From Escherichia phage vB_EcoP_EP32B, in the sequence record OR544955: a DNA stretch of 64,000 nt; one strand, written 5' to 3'. Each line of letters starts with the position of its first letter. Positions within the stretch are counted from its first letter, which is position 1. Position numbers and translations under genes: made by a program. The notes under the pieces are model-generated. The model had not been told where the DNA came from. It worked only from the letters and a program-made list of their open reading frames with translations, and ran no database searches. Positions 2,371 to 45,566 of this stretch are shown here, piece after piece.

Positions 2371-3885
2371 TTATAAATTAATTGTTTTCATTACATAGTT
2401 AAATTTCTCATCAGCGTAACGTTGGATACGATCAATACCGTGTTTTAACAAGTAATTAAGATGAGTATACTTCTTTTTAGTATTTAATGATTTAGGTTTT
2501 ACACCTGCGTCATCTATGAGATCCCAAACTGTAGCAACAGCTTTAGAACCGTGCTTACGAAGCACACGACCTACGGTTTGAAGTACGATAATTTTTGATT
2601 TAACACCATGGGCAAAAATAACATGATGAAGATTCTTGACTGAAATACCAGTAGAGAATACTCCATATGATGCGACAATAATAATGCCTTTACCATTTTC
2701 TGCCATGACTTTAAGCGCATTACGTGTTTCAGTATCAACTTCACCTGATACGTAATAAACTTTTTCGTATCCAAGCTCTTTAATAGCTTCAAATATTTCT
2801 TTACCGTGTGTAACGTGTTTAAACATTACAAAGGCGTTCTCGTCTTTCTTAGCCAATTTGACTGAAAGTTGAGCAATCCACTTTGTACGACGTTTTAGTC
2901 CGGTAATAATTTTAACTTCTTCTTGGTATGTTTTACCTTTTAATTTAACGGCGAATTCGTCCGGATAACGAAGGAAAATACTATTAATCTTAAGCTCAGT
3001 TACCTGTCCGTCTTCCATTAATTTAGACGTGCTAACAGGACGGAAGATTTCGCCGAACATACCTACGTACTGCATTACATTGGCTTTTCCGTCTCTTAAT
3101 GAGCCGGATAAACCGAATTTAAACATGCAATTATTTAATCCTGAGATGATTGAAGAAATACTTTTGCCTGTTGCTAAGTGGCATTCATCATTCATCATCA
3201 TACCGAACTGAGAGAACCATTCTTTAGGCTGCTTAACTACCGTTTGCCATGTGCCAACAATAATTGGAGCGTCGTTTTTAGATTTGTCCGCTTTATCAGC
3301 ACCACCACCAATTTTCTTAATCATCGAATGACTAAACAAACGATAATCAACAAAATCGTTAGCCATCTGGGTTGTCAATGCTGTTGTAGGTACGATAATG
3401 AGAATTTTACCTTCATAGTTCTCTAGATAATACCGAGCTAAAAGTGCTTGGATTAGTGATTTACCTGCTGATGTCGGAAGGTTTAAAATTCGACGACGAT
3501 TAACTAGTCCTTCATATACTGCATCTTTTTGATACCAATGTGGTTCGATTTTGGCGTTGCCTGAATAAATTTCTTGTTTAGAAAGCCATGAGTCAAAATC
3601 TTCCCTGGTAAGGTCTTCAGTCTCAAAGATTTTAGGGTCAATCCATACAGAATAACTCATATTGTTACAGAACTTTTTTATTTGTCCTACAAGTCCATAT
3701 GGTAACAAACGATTGTAATCTAAAAGACGAATTCTACCATCCCATTGCCCATAGCGATATTTTGGGTTAAATTTATACCCGTCAGCTTCAAAGCTAAAAA
3801 AGTCACGAAGTTCGTAAAACGTACTTTCGTCGCATTCAATGCGAACGTGACTAAAATCATAAAAATGTACTTTAATGTCAGTCAT
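2371..3885 (-). CDS. uvsW: UvsW SF2 DNA/RNA helicase
   Basis: 504 aa; Walker A LPTSAGKS and DECH box visible. Confidence 0.9.
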   Translation of the reverse strand: MTDIKVHFYDFSHVRIECDESTFYELRDFFSFEADGYKFNPKYRYGQWDGRIRLLDYNRLLPYGLVGQIKKFCNNMSYSVWIDPKIFETEDLTREDFDSWLSKQEIYSGNAKIEPHWYQKDAVYEGLVNRRRILNLPTSAGKSLIQALLARYYLENYEGKILIIVPTTALTTQMANDFVDYRLFSHSMIKKIGGGADKADKSKNDAPIIVGTWQTVVKQPKEWFSQFGMMMNDECHLATGKSISSIISGLNNCMFKFGLSGSLRDGKANVMQYVGMFGEIFRPVSTSKLMEDGQVTELKINSIFLRYPDEFAVKLKGKTYQEEVKIITGLKRRTKWIAQLSVKLAKKDENAFVMFKHVTHGKEIFEAIKELGYEKVYYVSGEVDTETRNALKVMAENGKGIIIVASYGVFSTGISVKNLHHVIFAHGVKSKIIVLQTVGRVLRKHGSKAVATVWDLIDDAGVKPKSLNTKKKYTHLNYLLKHGIDRIQRYADEKFNYVMKTINL

Positions 3886-29683: not shown

Positions 29684-32600
29684 CTAATTTAACCTGTGGT
29701 GGATTCACGGGGTCTCTTGGATTTCCTACATTATCGATTAACCGCTGTTCAACCAAATCTCTAAATCTAGAGAATGTTGTTCCGGACGCATCAAATAATG
29801 GGCTCATCAGTTTACGTCGTTCCGATGGAAGTTGACCTTGAAATATGGAGTTATTGTTTTCAGCGTTATAATCTTCAGGTAATGGATAATCTTGACCGGC
29901 CATAGGGCCTATTTCATATATCGCTTTACCTGTAATAGGGTCAAACTCAACATTTCCTTGTGGGTCTAATTTAGCCACTCGGTCTGCATATTTAGTCGGT
30001 AATCCAGAATCCCACTTATAGTTTTTGTATTTATTAATAACGGTTTCAACATGTTTAAGTGTTAATCCGGTGTTAATAAACATTGTGAGAAGGGTAATTG
30101 CGATAAATCCAAATCCAACCGGATGAACAAAACGTAATACGTCTGATTTCCAACGAGATGATGGAAGTTTAGATTTAATCTTCATTACGTAGTATGCTCT
30201 ACCACGATTTATGTAATCGATGTTGTTCTGAGAAAGCTCTTTACCTTTAATACCACGAACAATTTCACCTTCAAAACCAGGGAGTCTTTCAGCTTTAACT
30301 TCTTGTCCTTGGATTAAACGACCTAAGAGGTTGTGAATTGTTACGGTCCATTGTAATTTACCTTTAGAGTAACTTCTCTCGATATACGTCACATTACAAC
30401 GTCCTGTCGCGGTGTATATGGTTTGTCCGACCAAATCTTCTGTCAACGAATCAGATTCAATGATGATATCATATTCGGTCCCGGAGCTAGATTCAATTTC
30501 AATTTCAACATCTTCGTTATAAAGCACTTTAAACAAGAATTTATATGATGCTTCAGTTCCTTTAGTTGAATAGAAGTCATAACTTCTTGATTCAAAGAAA
30601 CGAGACACTAAATCGCGTTTTTCGGCGTTTAAATAAATGTTTCGTTTATAAATCTCGGACCATAAATATTCCCACGCATGTTCTTCTCGCGGATATTGAT
30701 TTTTAATAAGATTCAAAAGGTTGTTATAATGGGTCCCATAACCGTCAGAAAGATACTGAATATAAGCCTCGCAGAACGCTTCAAAGTTTGTATTATCTAA
30801 AAGATAAGACTCCGGCATCATTGTAGTGAGCAATGGACGTAAATCTGGGTCTGCAATACCATTCTCTTCTACAGGAGTCCATGTGGTATCTTTTTCTTGG
30901 TTTTGTAACGATGCTGTTAAGAATATATTAGTAGGCTTCCAAATTATAGAAACATTATCTCTAACACGATAACTAAAATCATAATAAGAAATAATCTCAC
31001 CTGATGATTTATAGAAAATCATGCCGGATGCATATTTTTTAAATCCGGTGAAATCCACGTTAGGCATCACTATTGTACAGTCACCGTCCTTCCAATATTC
31101 ATGAACTTCACGGTCTGAAGAACTAAGTGGATGATTCTCAATAACCTTAGTGTAAAGTAAATCAGAATAAATTACAACAGCCTTGTCTGAGTTATTAATC
31201 CAACATCGAGTACCGGACTTTCTAGAATAACTAAAGAATGGCTCAGCATAGTATTCCATCGGTTGAGGAGTGAACGATTCCCATTGAGAGTCTTCAGTTG
31301 AAATAAATGCCATCATATGATAATGTTTATCAGCCAACCATTCGCGAGGATACTCATATTTAACAGCACCGATTAAACCGTACTTGATTTGTGTTTTTGG
31401 GTCATCAACAATATCCGATTCTAGAAATTTAAAATTACTAGATGAAATAGATAACTCAACACCATCAGTAGACATACTGGTGTACCCAGGTTCAATACGA
31501 CGGCGTTCTTCTTCAGTATTACCAAACACACGTTTAAATGTGCCAGCATCATGGTCTAGAACGTAAACGCCCTTATCAGCAGAATCAACAATAGGAGTAG
31601 TCCTCGGGTCATCGTTAAGATTAACAACTTCACCGATAATCAGTGCAAATATTTTACCACCGACAGAATCCATTTTATAGCAAACTGCCTTAGGGTTACC
31701 TGTGATGTTAAATGTTTCTTGTTCAAACAAACGTTCGGAATATGTCGGAGATAACGGGTCTGAATCAATAGGGGCATTACTAGTTTTGATAAAACGAACT
31801 TTATCTCGAGCAGCAACGTATACATAATCGTCGTTGCAAACGATAGCTTCTGCAATACGTGATACGTTAGCAGGTAATGATGCGTAGTTACCAAATATTT
31901 CTACATCAAATCCTAAATTTAATTGGTCGCCAATTTTAGCAAATGTTATATCTTGGGAACTAAATCTCACATCATCAGCAGACCAACGAATGTCTGTTGA
32001 TTTACGACCGTAAAATAATTTATCGTACCCAAGAACATACGTGGTATAATCTGTCTGGTAATACACTGTTCTTGATACAGGGTACCCTACACGGTCATTA
32101 AACAATTTAACCGATTTCCAGGTTTGTCCCTTATCATTAGAGACTTTAACCACAGGCTGATACCGTTCAAACAAATAAAGAATTCCTTCGGATTCCATCA
32201 AATAAACACGGTTTATATCATGACACACCTGTTGAATCGAACCTTGAATTTCATGATACTCATTTTCGCCAATAATGAAATTTTTAATAGATGAAATATC
32301 TGCATAAGCAGGGCTAAATTGGAACGATTCATTCATTAGAGCTGCCATTATAGTGTCGTTATTAAAATCGACATAAGCCATGTTGTTATTTGTAAATTTT
32401 TCTCTAATAAAAGTGTTAGCCAATTGCATTTCAATCATATGTTGAAATGTATACGCGTTAGTCTGAAATGATTCAAATATTTCGGTATATACCCAATCAG
32501 ATCTCTCGAAGCCTTCGGCGGCAGTTGATACACGAATAATATAAGAAGTTAATGGGTCTAAGCTATTTTCGAACCAGTTGCTATTAGGAGTATATCCTAA

Positions 32601-35567: not shown

Positions 35568-37301
35568 TTACCCAATATCAATACGAGATCCGTCAACAGT
35601 GTATTGTCCTGAAGCTACTGAGCTCATTGTAGACATTGTTTCGGCCCAATCCCCGGCAACAGTCATATCAACATTACCATTAACAGTCCATTTAACGTTT
35701 CCGTTGACGGTGTAATCATGATTCCCTTCGACCTGAGTTTTAGCATCACCTTTAACAAGAATATCTGCATTTCCGTCAACAACTATTTTGATATTACCCT
35801 TAACGTAAAGAGTTCCATCGCCTTCAACAGTTTTAGATTGGTTACCACGAATAAAGATTGTGTCATTGCCGTCTATTTGATGGAGGCGGTCTGCCATGTT
35901 ATAATATATTTCATTAGCACCAACGTTAACAAGCTTATCGCCAGAAATCAAGAAGTTCCCATCACCATTAGTGATGTCAAAAAGGTCTTCTACAGTTTTA
36001 CGAGTACGACGCCCAGATGGAGAAACTTCCTCATATGACCCTGTTGGATGAACTAAACGATAACGTTCATTACCTGGAGTGTCATCAAATTCTTGGATAT
36101 GACCGCTTTCTGTTTCCATAGCATGAACGTATGGATACTCACCACGATAACTTGATTCCGGTTCTTTAAAAAGGATGCGTGAATCTAATGGAACAGGAGG
36201 ACCAGCCGGGTCTTCTGAATCGGTATTTCTAGTAACTAAATCGGCACCAACTCCTGGTGAAGGCGGTGTTTTAACAGGAACACCGTATGATTCCATGTTA
36301 CCGGTTAAAATAATTGTTGTTACACGTGAAGCGCGTCCTTTAGTCTGTTGGAACCATAATGAATCGCGCCCAGATTTGTATGCAGTTTTCCAATCACCTT
36401 CGGCCATTGCTTTAAGCATAGTATTGAATTTTGCTACACCACCAACGCCCATTTGGAAGCACATGTTTTCTAATGCCATTTGGCGAGATCTGTTCATTTT
36501 AGCATAAACAGGACCTACTTTAGAATTAGAACGAATGTCTTTCTGCATCTTAGCAAGGTCCTTCTCAAATAACGCTGTTGCTTCTTCTAATGTAATAGTT
36601 CCCGGATTTCCTGTTACTTCACGCCCTACTTGATCAGATAACAATTTATTAATTCGAGACATATCTCGGGTCTTTTCCATTACGATAAGGTGTCCAATAC
36701 CTACGGTAGGATATCCGAGATGGTCCCAATACACTTTATCACGAAGACCTTCGTCACGACGTAACATTTCTGTTATTGTAAAATTAGGGTCGTCATCTTC
36801 TGGAATATTTGCTAAATCTGTATCGTCTGGGTTTATACCATAATCTAAGTTGTTATCTTGAATTACGTTAGAGTTCGAATAATAACCAGCTTCACCACCT
36901 TGGTTTAATACGTTCGTATCATTACCTAAACGTCGCGGATACTGACCTGTCGGGTCTGAAAAACCTTCAAGTCTATTAGGCTTTTCACGTACAATTCCGC
37001 CATACGTACCAAGTACAATCCCGTTTGTTTTCCATTTGTCTAAGAAATGACCATATACTCGAGTTCCTTCAACAGGACCTGTAACAGAACCACCAATACC
37101 TGACATTGATGCAGACGTAATAGGTTGAATAACAGTCATCCATGGAAGTTTTTCTGTAGGAATACCTTGTACATCACCTTGTGCTCTCTGTGCCGGATGA
37201 AGTCCAACTACTCGCACTCGAACTCGCCCTTGTTTTAATGGGTCCATTCTGTCCTCGACAACACCCACGAACCAATTAAGGCTACTACTAATCATTTCCA
37301 T
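35568..37301 (-). CDS. 5: Baseplate central spike/cell-puncturing protein gp5 with lysozyme domain
   Basis: 577 aa; internal T4-lysozyme-like domain (GIGHL..., MLKAMAEGDWKTAY); C-terminal beta-helix VxGxxxxx repeats. Confidence 0.9.
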   Translation of the reverse strand: MEMISSSLNWFVGVVEDRMDPLKQGRVRVRVVGLHPAQRAQGDVQGIPTEKLPWMTVIQPITSASMSGIGGSVTGPVEGTRVYGHFLDKWKTNGIVLGTYGGIVREKPNRLEGFSDPTGQYPRRLGNDTNVLNQGGEAGYYSNSNVIQDNNLDYGINPDDTDLANIPEDDDPNFTITEMLRRDEGLRDKVYWDHLGYPTVGIGHLIVMEKTRDMSRINKLLSDQVGREVTGNPGTITLEEATALFEKDLAKMQKDIRSNSKVGPVYAKMNRSRQMALENMCFQMGVGGVAKFNTMLKAMAEGDWKTAYKSGRDSLWFQQTKGRASRVTTIILTGNMESYGVPVKTPPSPGVGADLVTRNTDSEDPAGPPVPLDSRILFKEPESSYRGEYPYVHAMETESGHIQEFDDTPGNERYRLVHPTGSYEEVSPSGRRTRKTVEDLFDITNGDGNFLISGDKLVNVGANEIYYNMADRLHQIDGNDTIFIRGNQSKTVEGDGTLYVKGNIKIVVDGNADILVKGDAKTQVEGNHDYTVNGNVKWTVNGNVDMTVAGDWAETMSTMSSVASGQYTVDGSRIDIG

Positions 37302-40614: not shown

Positions 40615-41300
<686 letters not shown>

Positions 41301-41313
41301 TTTTCACAAAACA

Positions 41314-41348
41314 GTTTACATAAGGATGATGGTGTGATACTATCATCC
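41314..41348 (+). promoter_or_regulatory. PeSL-like early promoter with stem-loop
   Basis: GTTTAC 41314-41319, TGATACTAT 41335-41343, inverted repeat GGATGAT/ATCATCC flanking the -10. Confidence 0.55.
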
Positions 41349-41377
41349 TATCAAATAAACAACCTCAAGGAAATAAA

Positions 41378-41440
41378 ATGAAAACATATCAAGAATTTAT
41401 ATATGTTATAGTAGTCCTATCAAAACAAGAGGATAATAAA
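41378..41440 (+). other. Remnant internal-protein (IPI-type) start codon region fused to a partial PeSL
   Basis: ATG with SD encoding MKTYQEFI (capsid-targeting-sequence-like), running directly into TATGTTATAGTAGTCCTATCAAAACAAGAGGA and a second start at 41441. Confidence 0.45.
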
Positions 41441-42280: not shown

Positions 42281-42772
42281 ATGAATATTTGTTTAGGCAG
42301 TACAATTCCTAAGGGTTACGTAATTGATGTCACTACTTGGGAAAATGACGGTGACAACTATAAAACCAAAACATTATTTGGTGTAGAAGAGCATGAGCTC
42401 CAACAGTTTAAATATCTCTTGAAGAAATTTAAGAGTCGTCATTCTAGTACTAAAGCTGAACGTTACTGTGGTAATACACTATTCAGTGATTGCTCGCTTT
42501 TAATCTATGAATACTTGGTTGAAGGACTGTTCTCAGACCAGCTTTATCCAGAATTCATTAAAAAGGTCTTTGATATTGAAGTCGACCTTGGTAATAAATC
42601 TGAAGAAGACGAATCACGTGTATTTGACCTGTTCCAAGGTCTCATTGATATTCTTGGCCATGCTTCTGAATATTATGACTATGATTTCTTGCGTGTAGTT
42701 GAACGTGTTGAATTCGCTTATATTGAAGAAGAAATTGTTTTGCCGACTGTTAAAATGATTGATTTGCTTTAA
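42281..42772 (+). CDS. Hypothetical acidic protein
   Basis: 163 aa ORF. Confidence 0.5.
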   Translation: MNICLGSTIPKGYVIDVTTWENDGDNYKTKTLFGVEEHELQQFKYLLKKFKSRHSSTKAERYCGNTLFSDCSLLIYEYLVEGLFSDQLYPEFIKKVFDIEVDLGNKSEEDESRVFDLFQGLIDILGHASEYYDYDFLRVVERVEFAYIEEEIVLPTVKMIDLL

Positions 42773-42851
42773 GAATTATGTGTTATTATTAATTCATACC
42801 CTCTATTACCAAAGGTGCTCTAAAGTGCCTTTCATAATAGAAAGTTATTTA

Positions 42852-42990
42852 GGCCCTGTAGCTCAATGGTGCAGTAGCTGCTCTGGAAAACCTGTTCCAA
42901 ATTGCAACAGAAGAACGCGAAGAAGTTACATTATGGATTGAAGATAACGCAGGTCTGAATCTCCAGGACGCGATCTCATTATCCCACAAT
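42852..42990 (+). other. Non-coding region with tRNA-like fragments (probable decayed tRNA cluster)
   Basis: GGCCCTGTAGCTCAATGGT resembles acceptor/D-arm; ...GATCTCATTATCC resembles a tRNA 3' region; no complete cloverleaf could be folded by eye. Confidence 0.3.
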
Positions 42991-43039
42991 AGTATCACTG
43001 TTCAAGGCTGGGTATCATCTAGTTATTCTTGCTAAAACA

Positions 43040-43078
43040 GTTTACAACAAGATAGGGCTATGTTATAGTAGTCCTATC
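43040..43078 (+). promoter_or_regulatory. PeSL-like early promoter with stem-loop
   Basis: GTTTAC 43040-43045; TGTTATAGT 43061-43069; inverted repeat GATAGGGCT/AGTCCTATC. Confidence 0.55.
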
Positions 43079-43097
43079 AAAACAAATGGAGTCCACA

Positions 43098-43337
43098 ATG
43101 ATTTATTACGAAAGTATCGGAACCAAAGTGGTTGGTAAAACCATTACTCGTGAAAAGTTTGCAAAGATATTCGATATGCGTTATAAAAAATCTGAACACA
43201 AAGGCATCCGATTCGAAGATGCGCACTGTACAATTTGCCCTTATAATGAAGACATAAACGGTACAATCGTTCCATTGGTAGAGGCTTCACATGATGACCT
43301 CTGGGATGAATATAATATCGCATGTCGTGAAATTTAA
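43098..43337 (+). CDS. Hypothetical protein
   Basis: 79 aa from ATG 43098 after GGAG. Confidence 0.5.
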   Translation: MIYYESIGTKVVGKTITREKFAKIFDMRYKKSEHKGIRFEDAHCTICPYNEDINGTIVPLVEASHDDLWDEYNIACREI

Positions 43338-43365
43338 GTTAATGAATTAATCCGAGGAAAATATT

Positions 43366-44322
43366 ATGATGTTAGTTATTGGTTCTCGTGCACTTCACTA
43401 TCACGGTCTTATTGATTCTAGCGCTATTAAAAATAGTGATTGGGACTTTATTGCGGACCAAGGTTCTTGGAATGCATTCAAAAATCAAATGATGGGTGTA
43501 TATGTTCACCAAGATAACCCTGATGTCCAAGTTTTCAAATGCTTCCATAATGGACGCGAAACTCATTTTGAAGCATATATTGTTCCGGCAATCACTAGTG
43601 TCCGTGAATTAGTCGGTGAACTCACTCCTGAAGATTTCACGTCTTCTTATGACCTTTTAAAATACGCCAAGAAAAATTTGACTAAAGACCGTTTGAACGG
43701 GTTTTACTGGGCAACTCCTGAGATATGTCTTGCAATTAAGATGTCTCATCGTTTCAAGAAAAATAATCCATTCTTTTTAAAGACTATGAACCATATTCAG
43801 TATCTTCGTGGTAAAGGTGTTAAACTGAACGATGAACTTACTGAAATTATGCTGAAACGCCAGAAAGAAACCTTGAACTATGCTCACCCTGTTCTTGACA
43901 CTTCTAAAAGTGCGTTCTTTAAAGATGACATCTATACATATGACCATGATACTATTCACGAAGCTATTGCACTAACAGACCGTCCGGCTTATACATTTTA
44001 CATGAAAGATGGTTCTGAAGTCATGACCTCACGCGAGAAGTTTGAATCACTTCCGGAAATGGTCAAATTGGCCGGTGTATATGAAGAAACATGTGTACTA
44101 GCGTTAGAACGTTCTCAGATTCCTAATGGCTTTGAAATCCATCCTCGTGATAGTTTTATGATGGCATTAGAAAAGGTCTGTACTTCAATCACATCAGGCT
44201 GGTTCCGTGAGTTCGCTTGGGAAAATTATAGCAAAGTAGTAAGTATGTACCAAAGCTTAGGACACGACGATTACGTCAAGCGTTTCAAACAAAACTTTCA
44301 TATGGTAAAACCTTTCAAATAA
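43366..44322 (+). CDS. Hypothetical 318 aa protein with possible nucleotidyltransferase-like GS...DxD motif
   Basis: GAGGA SD; N-terminal VIGSRALHYHGL...SDWDFIAD. Confidence 0.5.
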   Translation: MMLVIGSRALHYHGLIDSSAIKNSDWDFIADQGSWNAFKNQMMGVYVHQDNPDVQVFKCFHNGRETHFEAYIVPAITSVRELVGELTPEDFTSSYDLLKYAKKNLTKDRLNGFYWATPEICLAIKMSHRFKKNNPFFLKTMNHIQYLRGKGVKLNDELTEIMLKRQKETLNYAHPVLDTSKSAFFKDDIYTYDHDTIHEAIALTDRPAYTFYMKDGSEVMTSREKFESLPEMVKLAGVYEETCVLALERSQIPNGFEIHPRDSFMMALEKVCTSITSGWFREFAWENYSKVVSMYQSLGHDDYVKRFKQNFHMVKPFK

Positions 44323-44334
44323 TTTCACAAAACA

Positions 44335-44369
44335 GTTTACAAGGTCTGTAGTTGTTGATACTATAGACC
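44335..44369 (+). promoter_or_regulatory. PeSL-like early promoter with stem-loop
   Basis: GTTTAC 44335-44340; TGATACTAT; inverted repeat GGTCTGTAG/CTATAGACC. Confidence 0.55.
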
Positions 44370-44402
44370 TATCAAAACAAATGAGTGAATGGAGATATCA
44401 AA

Positions 44403-44603
44403 ATGACTACTTTGAATAAACGTTTCGGTAAAGCTAAACCTGGTTGTGCAGCAGAACGTCGTTATGTTTTCGCTCAGTTAGAAGATGTAGAGTATCAGAT
44501 TAATCAAGTTCACATTACTGGTATCGAGCCTATGTGTGGCCTTGAAGCTCTTCGTGAAGTTCGTGATGGGTATCGTCGTGACATCGAAGAAATGTCAAAA
44601 TAA
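44403..44603 (+). CDS. Hypothetical protein
   Basis: 66 aa from ATG 44403 after GGAG. Confidence 0.5.
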   Translation: MTTLNKRFGKAKPGCAAERRYVFAQLEDVEYQINQVHITGIEPMCGLEALREVRDGYRRDIEEMSK

Positions 44604-44604
44604 G

Positions 44605-44644
44605 TGTACAAACTGATAGGACTATGTTATAGTAGTAGTCCTAT
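44605..44644 (+). promoter_or_regulatory. PeSL-like early promoter with stem-loop
   Basis: GTGTAC -35 variant; TGTTATAGT; inverted repeat GATAGGACT/AGTCCTAT. Confidence 0.5.
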
Positions 44645-44664
44645 TAAAACATGAGGAGAATATT

Positions 44665-44970
44665 ATGAAATTAACAGAAACCAATCGAATTGGTCTTTTA
44701 ACAATACTTGCATCACCTTTTTACGCAACTCTTTCTGTTGCAGTATTACAAAAGGCTTACGATATGGATGGTGTTCCTGGTTTTGTATTCTTATCGCCGT
44801 TTTTGCTATTCGTTGGAGCATTGTTATTATATGCCACGACTGGTTTCGACCATAATGTCTGGGTCAATTATAAACGTAAATTGTCCGAAGAAGAACACGC
44901 AGAAGCTCGTAAAAAAGCTATTGAATCTACCAATCTAGAAAATTTCATTAAAGAATGTCGAGGAAAATAA
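44665..44970 (+). CDS. Small membrane protein
   Basis: 101 aa; GAGGAG SD; two predicted TM helices. Confidence 0.55.
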   Translation: MKLTETNRIGLLTILASPFYATLSVAVLQKAYDMDGVPGFVFLSPFLLFVGALLLYATTGFDHNVWVNYKRKLSEEEHAEARKKAIESTNLENFIKECRGK

Positions 44971-45092
44971 TATGAATAGTTCTAAAGTGTTTAATAGTCA
45001 AGCTCGTGCAGTAGGTGGTTTTGCTCATGCGATTAAAAATGACCAGATTAAAAACGAGCCTATGTTCTTTTGTATTTGATTCACGAGTCCAC

Positions 45093-45566
45093 ATGCTGAT
45101 GCCTGGTTGGTATCCTGCTATCCCAGGTTATCACCATGATGACGTACCACGCCCGGATATTCCGGTTGGTCAACATTTTATTACTGCAGGACAACCTGAC
45201 TATGACAATCCTCGCTATTTGTCTGAACATATTCTTGGTCTTGTTAACGCTGATGTGTGTCCTACTCATTTTGCAACAGGAACTGCGGAGTTCAGTCAGA
45301 TTCCTGATGGCGAACTTATCTATCGCCAGTGGCACAAAGAAGTCCTCGAAAAAATCGAAAAAGGCGAACTAGAGAAATGGGAAGCTCCAGACCGTACTCT
45401 TCTTCAGTTTGATTGGCAAACATGGCACACTGGTTCTCGTGCAATTAGTAATGGATGGCGTTGGTTCGGACGTGTATCTCGTAATACAGACCGAGTTAAA
45501 AAGATTACCAATGAAATTCGCGTCAATGCCCAAGTTTATCTGGAATTCCCTATGGAAGGCTGGTAA
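45093..45566 (+). CDS. Hypothetical protein (start uncertain)
   Basis: Frame open from 45015; first ATG at 45093 without clear SD; a 35 aa ORF (44972-45079) precedes it in another frame. Confidence 0.4.
   Translation: MLMPGWYPAIPGYHHDDVPRPDIPVGQHFITAGQPDYDNPRYLSEHILGLVNADVCPTHFATGTAEFSQIPDGELIYRQWHKEVLEKIEKGELEKWEAPDRTLLQFDWQTWHTGSRAISNGWRWFGRVSRNTDRVKKITNEIRVNAQVYLEFPMEGW

Follow-up and report, generated by a model that had tools for sequence, protein, structure and literature searches.

Escherichia phage vB_EcoP_EP32B (sequence record OR544955) carries, within the 64,000-nucleotide stretch analysed here (the window), a gene for a 318-aa two-domain protein whose N-terminal domain is predicted to be a nucleotidyltransferase (NTase) core of the Pol-beta type. 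In phages of Gram-negative hosts this enzyme gene forms the downstream part of a conserved module, in which it follows one or more genes for small acidic proteins that share a short C-terminal tail. The linkage is near-obligate and bidirectional, with both kinds of gene on the same strand. In the window itself, the enzyme gene is intact but orphaned of its partners. Two points appear to be new with respect to the searchable databases and papers, namely the recognition of the N-terminal domain, DUF7277, as an intact NTase core and the module of enzyme and tail proteins.

A two-domain enzyme with a predicted NTase core

The open reading frame (ORF) begins with ATG behind a Shine-Dalgarno sequence (Table 1), and the ratio of nonsynonymous to synonymous substitution rates (dN/dS) of 0.06-0.12, measured against four Mosigvirus orthologues, identifies it as protein-coding and under purifying selection. 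The 318-aa ORF proposed in an earlier note, which was made from the letters of the sequence alone, is thereby confirmed. With an early promoter in the preceding PeSL element (early promoter plus stem-loop), a good ribosome-binding site and purifying selection, it has the appearance of an expressed early gene. The nearest orthologue in the databases, in phage SA79RD, is 99.1% identical and is annotated there as a homologue of RB69ORF134c; Mosigvirus orthologues are 96-99% identical to the window protein. The flanking genes, which include the dNMP kinase (gene 1), 57A, 57B, nudE, lysozyme e and denV, place the phage in the RB69/HX01 group (Mosigvirus) of the T4-like phages.

The earlier note recognised no homologue, yet the protein matches two Pfam domains above their gathering thresholds, DUF7277 (PF23942; aa 2-101, E 8.6e-28, 97.3 bits, cut-off 27) followed in N-to-C order by DUF7275 (PF23940; aa 120-305, E 2.8e-79, 265.8 bits, cut-off 27), and PHROG 2141 over its full length (E 2.5e-150). 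None of the three entries carries an assigned function. DUF7275 was matched in all 52 aligned homologues and DUF7277 in 51 of them, whereas no match was obtained in NCBIfam or PADLOC, and a literature search for DUF7275, DUF7277, RB69ORF134c and PHROG 2141 found no paper. The ORF is an ordinary member of catalogued, uncharacterised families and no orphan sequence.

The N-terminus quoted in the earlier note, VIGSRALHYHGL...SDWDFIAD, corresponds to aa 4-31, and its resemblance to an NTase motif was described there as weak. The match is nevertheless far above chance, as the catalytic residues are invariant or nearly so. G6, S7, D25, D27 and E69 are identical across the 52 homologues, and among 150 cluster representatives that are 36-56% identical to the query the corresponding frequencies are 100% for G6, 97% for S7, 99% for D25 and 100% for D27, while position 69 is acidic in 99% (E 88%, D 11%). 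The AlphaFold2 model of the enzyme (predicted local distance difference test 92.7, predicted TM-score 0.87) places these residues in their standard positions, which supports the NTase reading: I5-G6-S7, of the form hG[GS], follows strand 2-5 and opens helix 6-12; D25-W-D27-F, of the form [DE]h[DE]h, lies on strand 25-31, ahead of helix 32-41; and E69 supplies a third carboxylate on the later strand 64-73. The spacer between GS and DxD has 17 residues, compared with 9-13 in the classic arrangement. The model is similar in three dimensions to solved NTases, and its fold match to them is consistent. Conservation, residue placement and fold similarity thus bear out the NTase-like motif, and structure prediction gave no confident hit to an unrelated fold, the outcome under which the earlier note would have given up its reading. 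The N-terminal ~105 residues are hence modelled as a minimal Pol-beta NTase core with a full catalytic set. Membership in the AbiEii, ANT, Lnu or RlaP families was considered and rejected, since the 52 members matched no Pfam entry beyond the two DUFs at E <= 5.

The region ~110-318, about 200 residues, is all-helical in the AlphaFold2 model. Thirteen positions in it are invariant in 150 of 150 representatives (K125, H128, K139, H194, D195, H198, E240, E241, E248, R249, S277, G278 and R281), it carries a TS-x-TSG loop, and the mean frequency of the top residue is higher in the C domain than in the N domain (0.62 vs 0.52, 150 representatives). The basic residues, the loop and the cluster of His, Asp and Glu suggest that this domain may bind a phosphate-bearing ligand, a metal or both. 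The full-length model aligns to MenT1 over ~145 residues while the N domain comprises only ~105, and for this reason the first helices of the C region probably match the helical extension that minimal NTases usually have. The remainder of the region is a domain without a recognisable fold; no significant match for the C domain was found in the PDB.

The enzyme family was found by tblastn in 733 of 50,697 phage records. T4-like carriers include Mosigvirus, JS98-like, Klebsiella, Enterobacter, Serratia, Citrobacter, Aeromonas and Acinetobacter phages; outside these, the gene occurs in rV5-like Phapecoctavirus, Pseudomonas Otagovirus, Xanthomonas and Ralstonia jumbo phages, Vibrio phages, Bacillus phage G, and Streptomyces and Gordonia phages. 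When 1.84 billion cluster representatives (50% identity) were searched with a profile, 1,616 matched, and the best 150 of these are all two-domain proteins of ~300 aa matched end to end. Among cellular genomes (185,579 bacterial and archaeal species, one genome each) only five loci were found, all on contigs of metagenome-assembled genomes, so the family appears effectively virus-only. In BFVD, DUF7275 proteins of 508 and 571 aa are present in the giant viruses Sylvanvirus and Satyrvirus (A0A3G5AJ90, A0A3G5AE53; TM-score ~0.70 to the query model), together with split forms that consist of the N domain only (117 aa, phage KIL2) or the C domain only (168 aa, phage IME13). In the actinophage homologues, of 251-263 aa (Streptomyces phage Blueeyedbeauty, L118 2878-3633; Gordonia phage Engineer, L119 2809-3600), the N domain is shortened, with GS and DxD retained and the E69 hairpin missing; the homologue of Engineer lies directly upstream of an array of transfer RNA (tRNA) genes. 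Among Escherichia phage records, 517 contain the neighbouring T4-type tRNA.2-tRNA.4 region as against 259 with the enzyme gene, from which it follows that many T4-like coliphages would be without it, and these counts suggest that the T4 group itself is probably among them.

The co-encoded small acidic proteins

Gene neighbourhoods were examined in 85 loci, of which 80 came from IMG/VR with flanks of 8 kb and five were the window and four regions of annotated phages; ORFs were called in all of them and the 2,832 resulting proteins were clustered. In 15 of the 22 enzyme lineages one neighbour family occurred no more than 3 kb from the enzyme gene; the next-best family did so in 4. A hidden Markov model (HMM) of this family recovered 148 ORFs (E < 1e-3) in 75 of the 85 loci, every one on the strand of the enzyme gene and all but two upstream of it, at a median gap of 840 bp and in some cases at only 12-100 bp. 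There are usually one to three tandem paralogues per locus, with five and six in one locus each. Of the ten HMM-negative loci, four (L031, L054, L067 and L073) have divergent members immediately ahead of the enzyme gene that were recognised on visual inspection. No conserved third gene was found in the 85 loci; the 83-aa ORF that precedes the enzyme gene in the window is confined to T4-like phages.

The small proteins have a median length of 88 aa, an isoelectric point of 4.4 and a net charge of about -9. An N-terminal amphipathic helix ends in ...IADExGxxF, a central motif reads YG-x-GG-x-YY-P, and the tail reads G-x-W-x-[S/A]-S-S-x-x-C-COOH, with W(-7), S(-4) and C(0) essentially invariant; a Cys followed by the stop codon forms the exact terminus in 146 of the 148 ORFs. 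The family corresponds to phrog_899, which has no assigned function, and its database names are all 'hypothetical'; no Pfam model, PDB relative or paper that mentions it was found.

The linkage also holds when approached from the small proteins. The DNA pattern for GWVSS(S)xxC-stop retrieved 32 stretches from IMG/VR, three of them chance matches, and 28 of the 29 genuine tail genes share a contig with an enzyme gene, the remaining one lying at a contig end. Likewise, in a tblastn search with an Otagovirus member, the hosts of the small protein formed a subset of those of the enzyme, with the hits at the expected upstream positions.

The actinophage homologues (Blueeyedbeauty, Engineer) have no W-x-x-S-S-x-x-C neighbour. 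In Bacillus phage G (L120), the very acidic gp204 (2172-2525, 117 aa) ends in ...ETSSSW and lies directly upstream of gp205 (2560-3564), the DUF7275 homologue; it could represent a variant form of the tail-protein partner from a phage with a Gram-positive host. At another locus (L127), the small protein ends in ...NSSGGPACW and a second, canonical copy (...WHSSSESC) stands upstream. An apparent Rosetta-stone fusion at the same locus (P0231, 377 aa, 1-1240) was discarded as a gene-calling artefact, as a TAG stop separates the two ORFs. A linkage to tRNA genes was also considered and is not compelling: outside the T4-like lineage, only four loci have such a gene within 8 kb.

Deletion, cassette and neighbouring genes in the window

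In SA79RD and HX01, the stretch made up of the PeSL element, the 83-aa ORF and the enzyme gene is directly preceded by three partner genes. Window and HX01 stay collinear as far as HX01 position 32012, 18 nt into the tRNA-Met gene; collinearity resumes at HX01 position 37074, inside the third partner gene. The 5,061 bp that are missing relative to HX01 include tRNA genes, the e.3-e.8 homologues and two small partner genes, and the third partner gene is truncated; it is this deletion that orphaned the enzyme gene in the window. What is left of the third gene is a remnant of 165 nt without an in-frame start codon, which is the same as in SA79RD throughout its length and diverges upstream of it. 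The junction itself (42851-42880) fuses the 18 nt of tRNA-Met to the middle of the small W-x-x-S-S-x-x-C gene. The HMM detected no other member of the small-protein family in the 64 kb, so that no intact phrog_899 gene lies within ~3 kb upstream on the same strand, and the window holds no tRNA genes. The same junction was found in none of the 50,697 phage records; in phage SQ17 the deletion in this region is shorter, and two of the partner genes survive. The enzyme of the window differs only at the variable positions T242, G255 and E257. Natural deletion variants such as the window genome and SQ17 offer ready-made genetic contrasts.

Table 1. Coordinates of the enzyme gene, its predicted functional residues and the surrounding elements in the window
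Feature	Position	Strand	Basis or remark
CDS, 318 aa, two-domain NTase-like enzyme (RB69ORF134c homologue)	43366..44322	+	ORF list, Pfam, PHROG, dN/dS, AlphaFold2
Shine-Dalgarno GAGGA	43354..43358	+	read from sequence
N domain (aa 2-101, DUF7277), predicted minimal Pol-beta-type NTase fold	43369..43668	+	
G6-S7, 'hG[GS]' motif opening helix 6-12	43381..43386	+	conservation and secondary structure
D25-W-D27, predicted metal-binding DxD, strand 25-31	43438..43446	+	conservation
E69, third carboxylate, strand 64-73	43570..43572	+	conservation
C domain (aa 120-305, DUF7275), all-alpha	43723..44280	+	with invariant residue set
83-aa ORF, phrog_3723, in the same cassette as the enzyme gene	43086..43337	+	T4-like phages only
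Upstream PeSL-like element	43036..43082	+	TTTACA-N17-TATAGT at 43041-43069, hairpin 43051-43078
Downstream PeSL-like element	44329..44378	+	TTTACA-N17-TACTAT at 44336-44364, hairpin 44342-44370
Two more PeSL-like promoter and stem-loop elements	41300-41370; 44603-44650		frame AAAACAGTTTACA...CCTATCAAAACA
tRNA-Met, first 18 nt, left edge of deletion	42851..42868	+	HX01 comparison; tRNA-Met intact in HX01
Startless 5'-truncated remnant of third partner gene, ends ...GWVSSSYSC-stop	42871..43035	+	SA79RD comparison

T4-type PeSL elements consist of an early promoter, TTTACW-N17-TAYWAT, and a stem-loop (PMC2839356, PMC4122927), and the two elements that bracket the enzyme gene fit this promoter consensus. 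When the four intergenic elements of the region were aligned, they were found to have in common AAAACAGTTTACA, a -10 box inside the hairpin and CCTATCAAAACAA. Their hairpins are stable, with folding energies of -14.5 to -16.4 kcal/mol (z -2.8 to -4.2); the upstream element reaches -16 kcal/mol (z -4.2) and the downstream one -16.4 kcal/mol (z -3.4). Stable hairpins, four copies and indels between close relatives agree with the description of such elements as stem-loops of hyperplastic regions. The earlier note was therefore right in placing the gene between two PeSL elements; the cassette contains two ORFs rather than one, because the 83-aa ORF follows the upstream element before the enzyme gene begins. 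This ORF, found in 229 records, has no assigned function and would be co-transcribed with the enzyme gene; its HX01 orthologue is labelled 'major capsid protein' in RefSeq, which is evidently wrong. Relative to HX01, ~285 bp (30225-30509) with an ipI-like internal-protein gene between two PeSL copies are missing at 41300-41402 of the window, which looks like a PeSL-mediated loss of a cassette.

Upstream of the enzyme gene, at 40845-41300 (+), the window encodes a 151-aa homologue of Acb1 (T4 57B; PF23474, E 1.8e-58), a 2H phosphodiesterase directed against the cyclic-oligonucleotide-based anti-phage signalling system (CBASS), whose HX01 orthologue is labelled 'RNA ligase' in RefSeq. The ORFs at 45015-45566, 44665-44970, 44385-44603 and 42281-42772 (all +; 183, 101, 72 and 163 aa, respectively) had no Pfam match.

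Possible functions and known systems

Tentatively, we propose that the protein is an NTP-dependent enzyme that modifies the tails of the small proteins, with the invariant tail Ser as acceptor. The enzyme would bind a nucleoside triphosphate (NTP) and Mg2+ at the DxD/E site, and the nucleotidyl group would pass to an acceptor that the DUF7275 domain holds in place. That acceptor would most likely be the invariant tail Ser of the small partner proteins, a reaction amounting to protein nucleotidylylation, and further chemistry with the terminal Cys may come next. We are led to this substrate by the pattern of one enzyme accompanied by several paralogues with a short invariant tail in common, as expected of an enzyme and its substrates. 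Several points weigh against the proposal. The link between enzyme and tail is purely genomic, and the closest solved folds, MenT1, MenT3 and MenT4, act on tRNA 3' ends, while the ANT(2'') and LnuA folds act on small molecules and not on proteins. Homologues without a small partner occur in actinophages and probably in giant viruses, so the wider family would have another acceptor or none. In the window, moreover, an intact, selected enzyme without partners in 64 kb would fit a partner-independent function at least as well.

Among the alternatives, the one that fares best, though we consider it unlikely, is an RNA NTase of the MenT/AbiEii kind, which would add nucleotides to the 3' ends of tRNA or other RNA for repair or host manipulation, with the small proteins as regulators similar to MenA1, the companion of an RNA 3'-end transferase of the MenT type (PMC7450476). 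None of the 52 members matches Pfam AbiEii/DUF1814 (PF08843, motifs I-IV) even at E <= 5, PADLOC gave no match, and the family is phage-only and does not occupy cellular toxin-antitoxin loci. With one to six paralogues per enzyme and an invariant tail, the small proteins do not resemble an antitoxin, and it would be odd for the window to have lost the small genes and kept an intact enzyme if the small proteins neutralised a toxin. Most of the scanned loci, furthermore, have no tRNA gene within 8 kb.

Somewhat less probable again is an NTase for small molecules with a mechanism like that of ANT(2'') or LnuA, whose target would be a metabolite, a nucleotide signal or an anti-phage compound resembling an antibiotic. 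The C domain would then provide the pocket for the acceptor, and the small proteins would be neighbours with a function of their own. There is no sequence match to the aminoglycoside or lincosamide NTase families, the near-obligate, bidirectional linkage to the W-x-x-S-S-x-x-C proteins would be left unexplained, and the proximity to Acb1 is not kept outside T4-like phages. We rate as improbable a third alternative, in which catalysis resides in the C domain, perhaps as a metal-dependent hydrolase or lyase that uses H128, H194, D195, H198, E240, E241 and E248, and the N domain binds a nucleotide or serves as a scaffold. In its favour are the higher conservation of the C domain, the existence of DUF7275 on its own in some phages, as in the IME13 protein, the actinophage N domain shortened by the E69 hairpin, and a pattern of His, Asp and Glu that would resemble a metal site. 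Both alternatives stay alive because of the partnerless homologues in actinophages and probably in giant viruses.

A more elaborate form of the tail-modification proposal, which we regard as a long shot, would be a phage-exclusive maturation in which O-nucleotidylylation of the tail Ser is followed by elimination to dehydroalanine in the DUF7275 domain and addition of the Cys, so that a C-terminal thioether ring of the lanthionine or aminovinyl-cysteine (AviCys) type is formed on small effectors. The S-x-x-C spacing of the tail equals that of the Ser19-Cys22 ring of epidermin. Finally, it is very improbable that the motif is fortuitous and the protein non-enzymatic, structural or regulatory: some records name homologues 'prohead assembly scaffold protein' or 'structural protein', but such names are isolated automatic transfers, and the catalytic residues are conserved in 150 divergent representatives with a consistent NTase fold match.

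The family ranks among the larger enzyme families of virulent phages that have yet to be characterised, and the NTase core gives it a biochemical identity that can be tested, while the linkage to multi-copy Ser-Ser-x-x-Cys proteins supplies candidate substrates or partners. Should tail modification prove true, it would constitute a previously unrecognised viral system of post-translational modification, and the modified small acidic proteins would be plausible effectors of host takeover or anti-defence; thioether-ring formation, if true, would add a new enzyme class for chemistry like that of ribosomally synthesised and post-translationally modified peptides, present in hundreds of virulent phages.

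In comparison with known systems, the closest solved folds are those of the MenT/AbiEii (DUF1814) toxins, namely MenT1 (8an4), MenT3/TglT (6j7n) and MenT4 (6y56), and in MenT3 the C-lobe provides catalytic K189 and D211 facing the Pol-beta site. The genomic setting differs from that of a toxin-antitoxin pair in that the family is phage-only and the small upstream proteins are multi-copy and absent from the window. ANT(2'')-Ia (4xje), LnuA (4wh5), TM1012 and JHP933 are single-lobe proteins of 150-225 aa that act on small molecules; they have no sequence similarity to the enzyme and are missing the 200-aa DUF7275 domain. RlaP is an RNA-ligase-associated Pol-beta NTase of large phages (PMC7824862). 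The present enzyme resembles it as another phage NTase of the Pol-beta superfamily in large virulent and jumbo phages; it has no Pfam RlaP match and no consistent linkage to RNA ligase: the annotated loci that were inspected include a single case of such a neighbour, in Streptomyces phage Blueeyedbeauty, where the enzyme gene lies 1.3 kb downstream of it.

Pol-beta NTases that act on Ser or Tyr of proteins include GlnE, GlnD, MntA and CitX/MdcG, and the substrates of CitX and MdcG are acidic carrier proteins of ~100 aa. No sequence similarity or specific structural similarity between these and the enzyme was detected, and the phrog_899 partners are unrelated to PII, HepT and CitD. The likeness is one of proposed function, in that the phage enzyme, by analogy, may transfer a nucleotidyl or nucleotide-like group to the hydroxyl of a Ser or Tyr in a dedicated partner protein.

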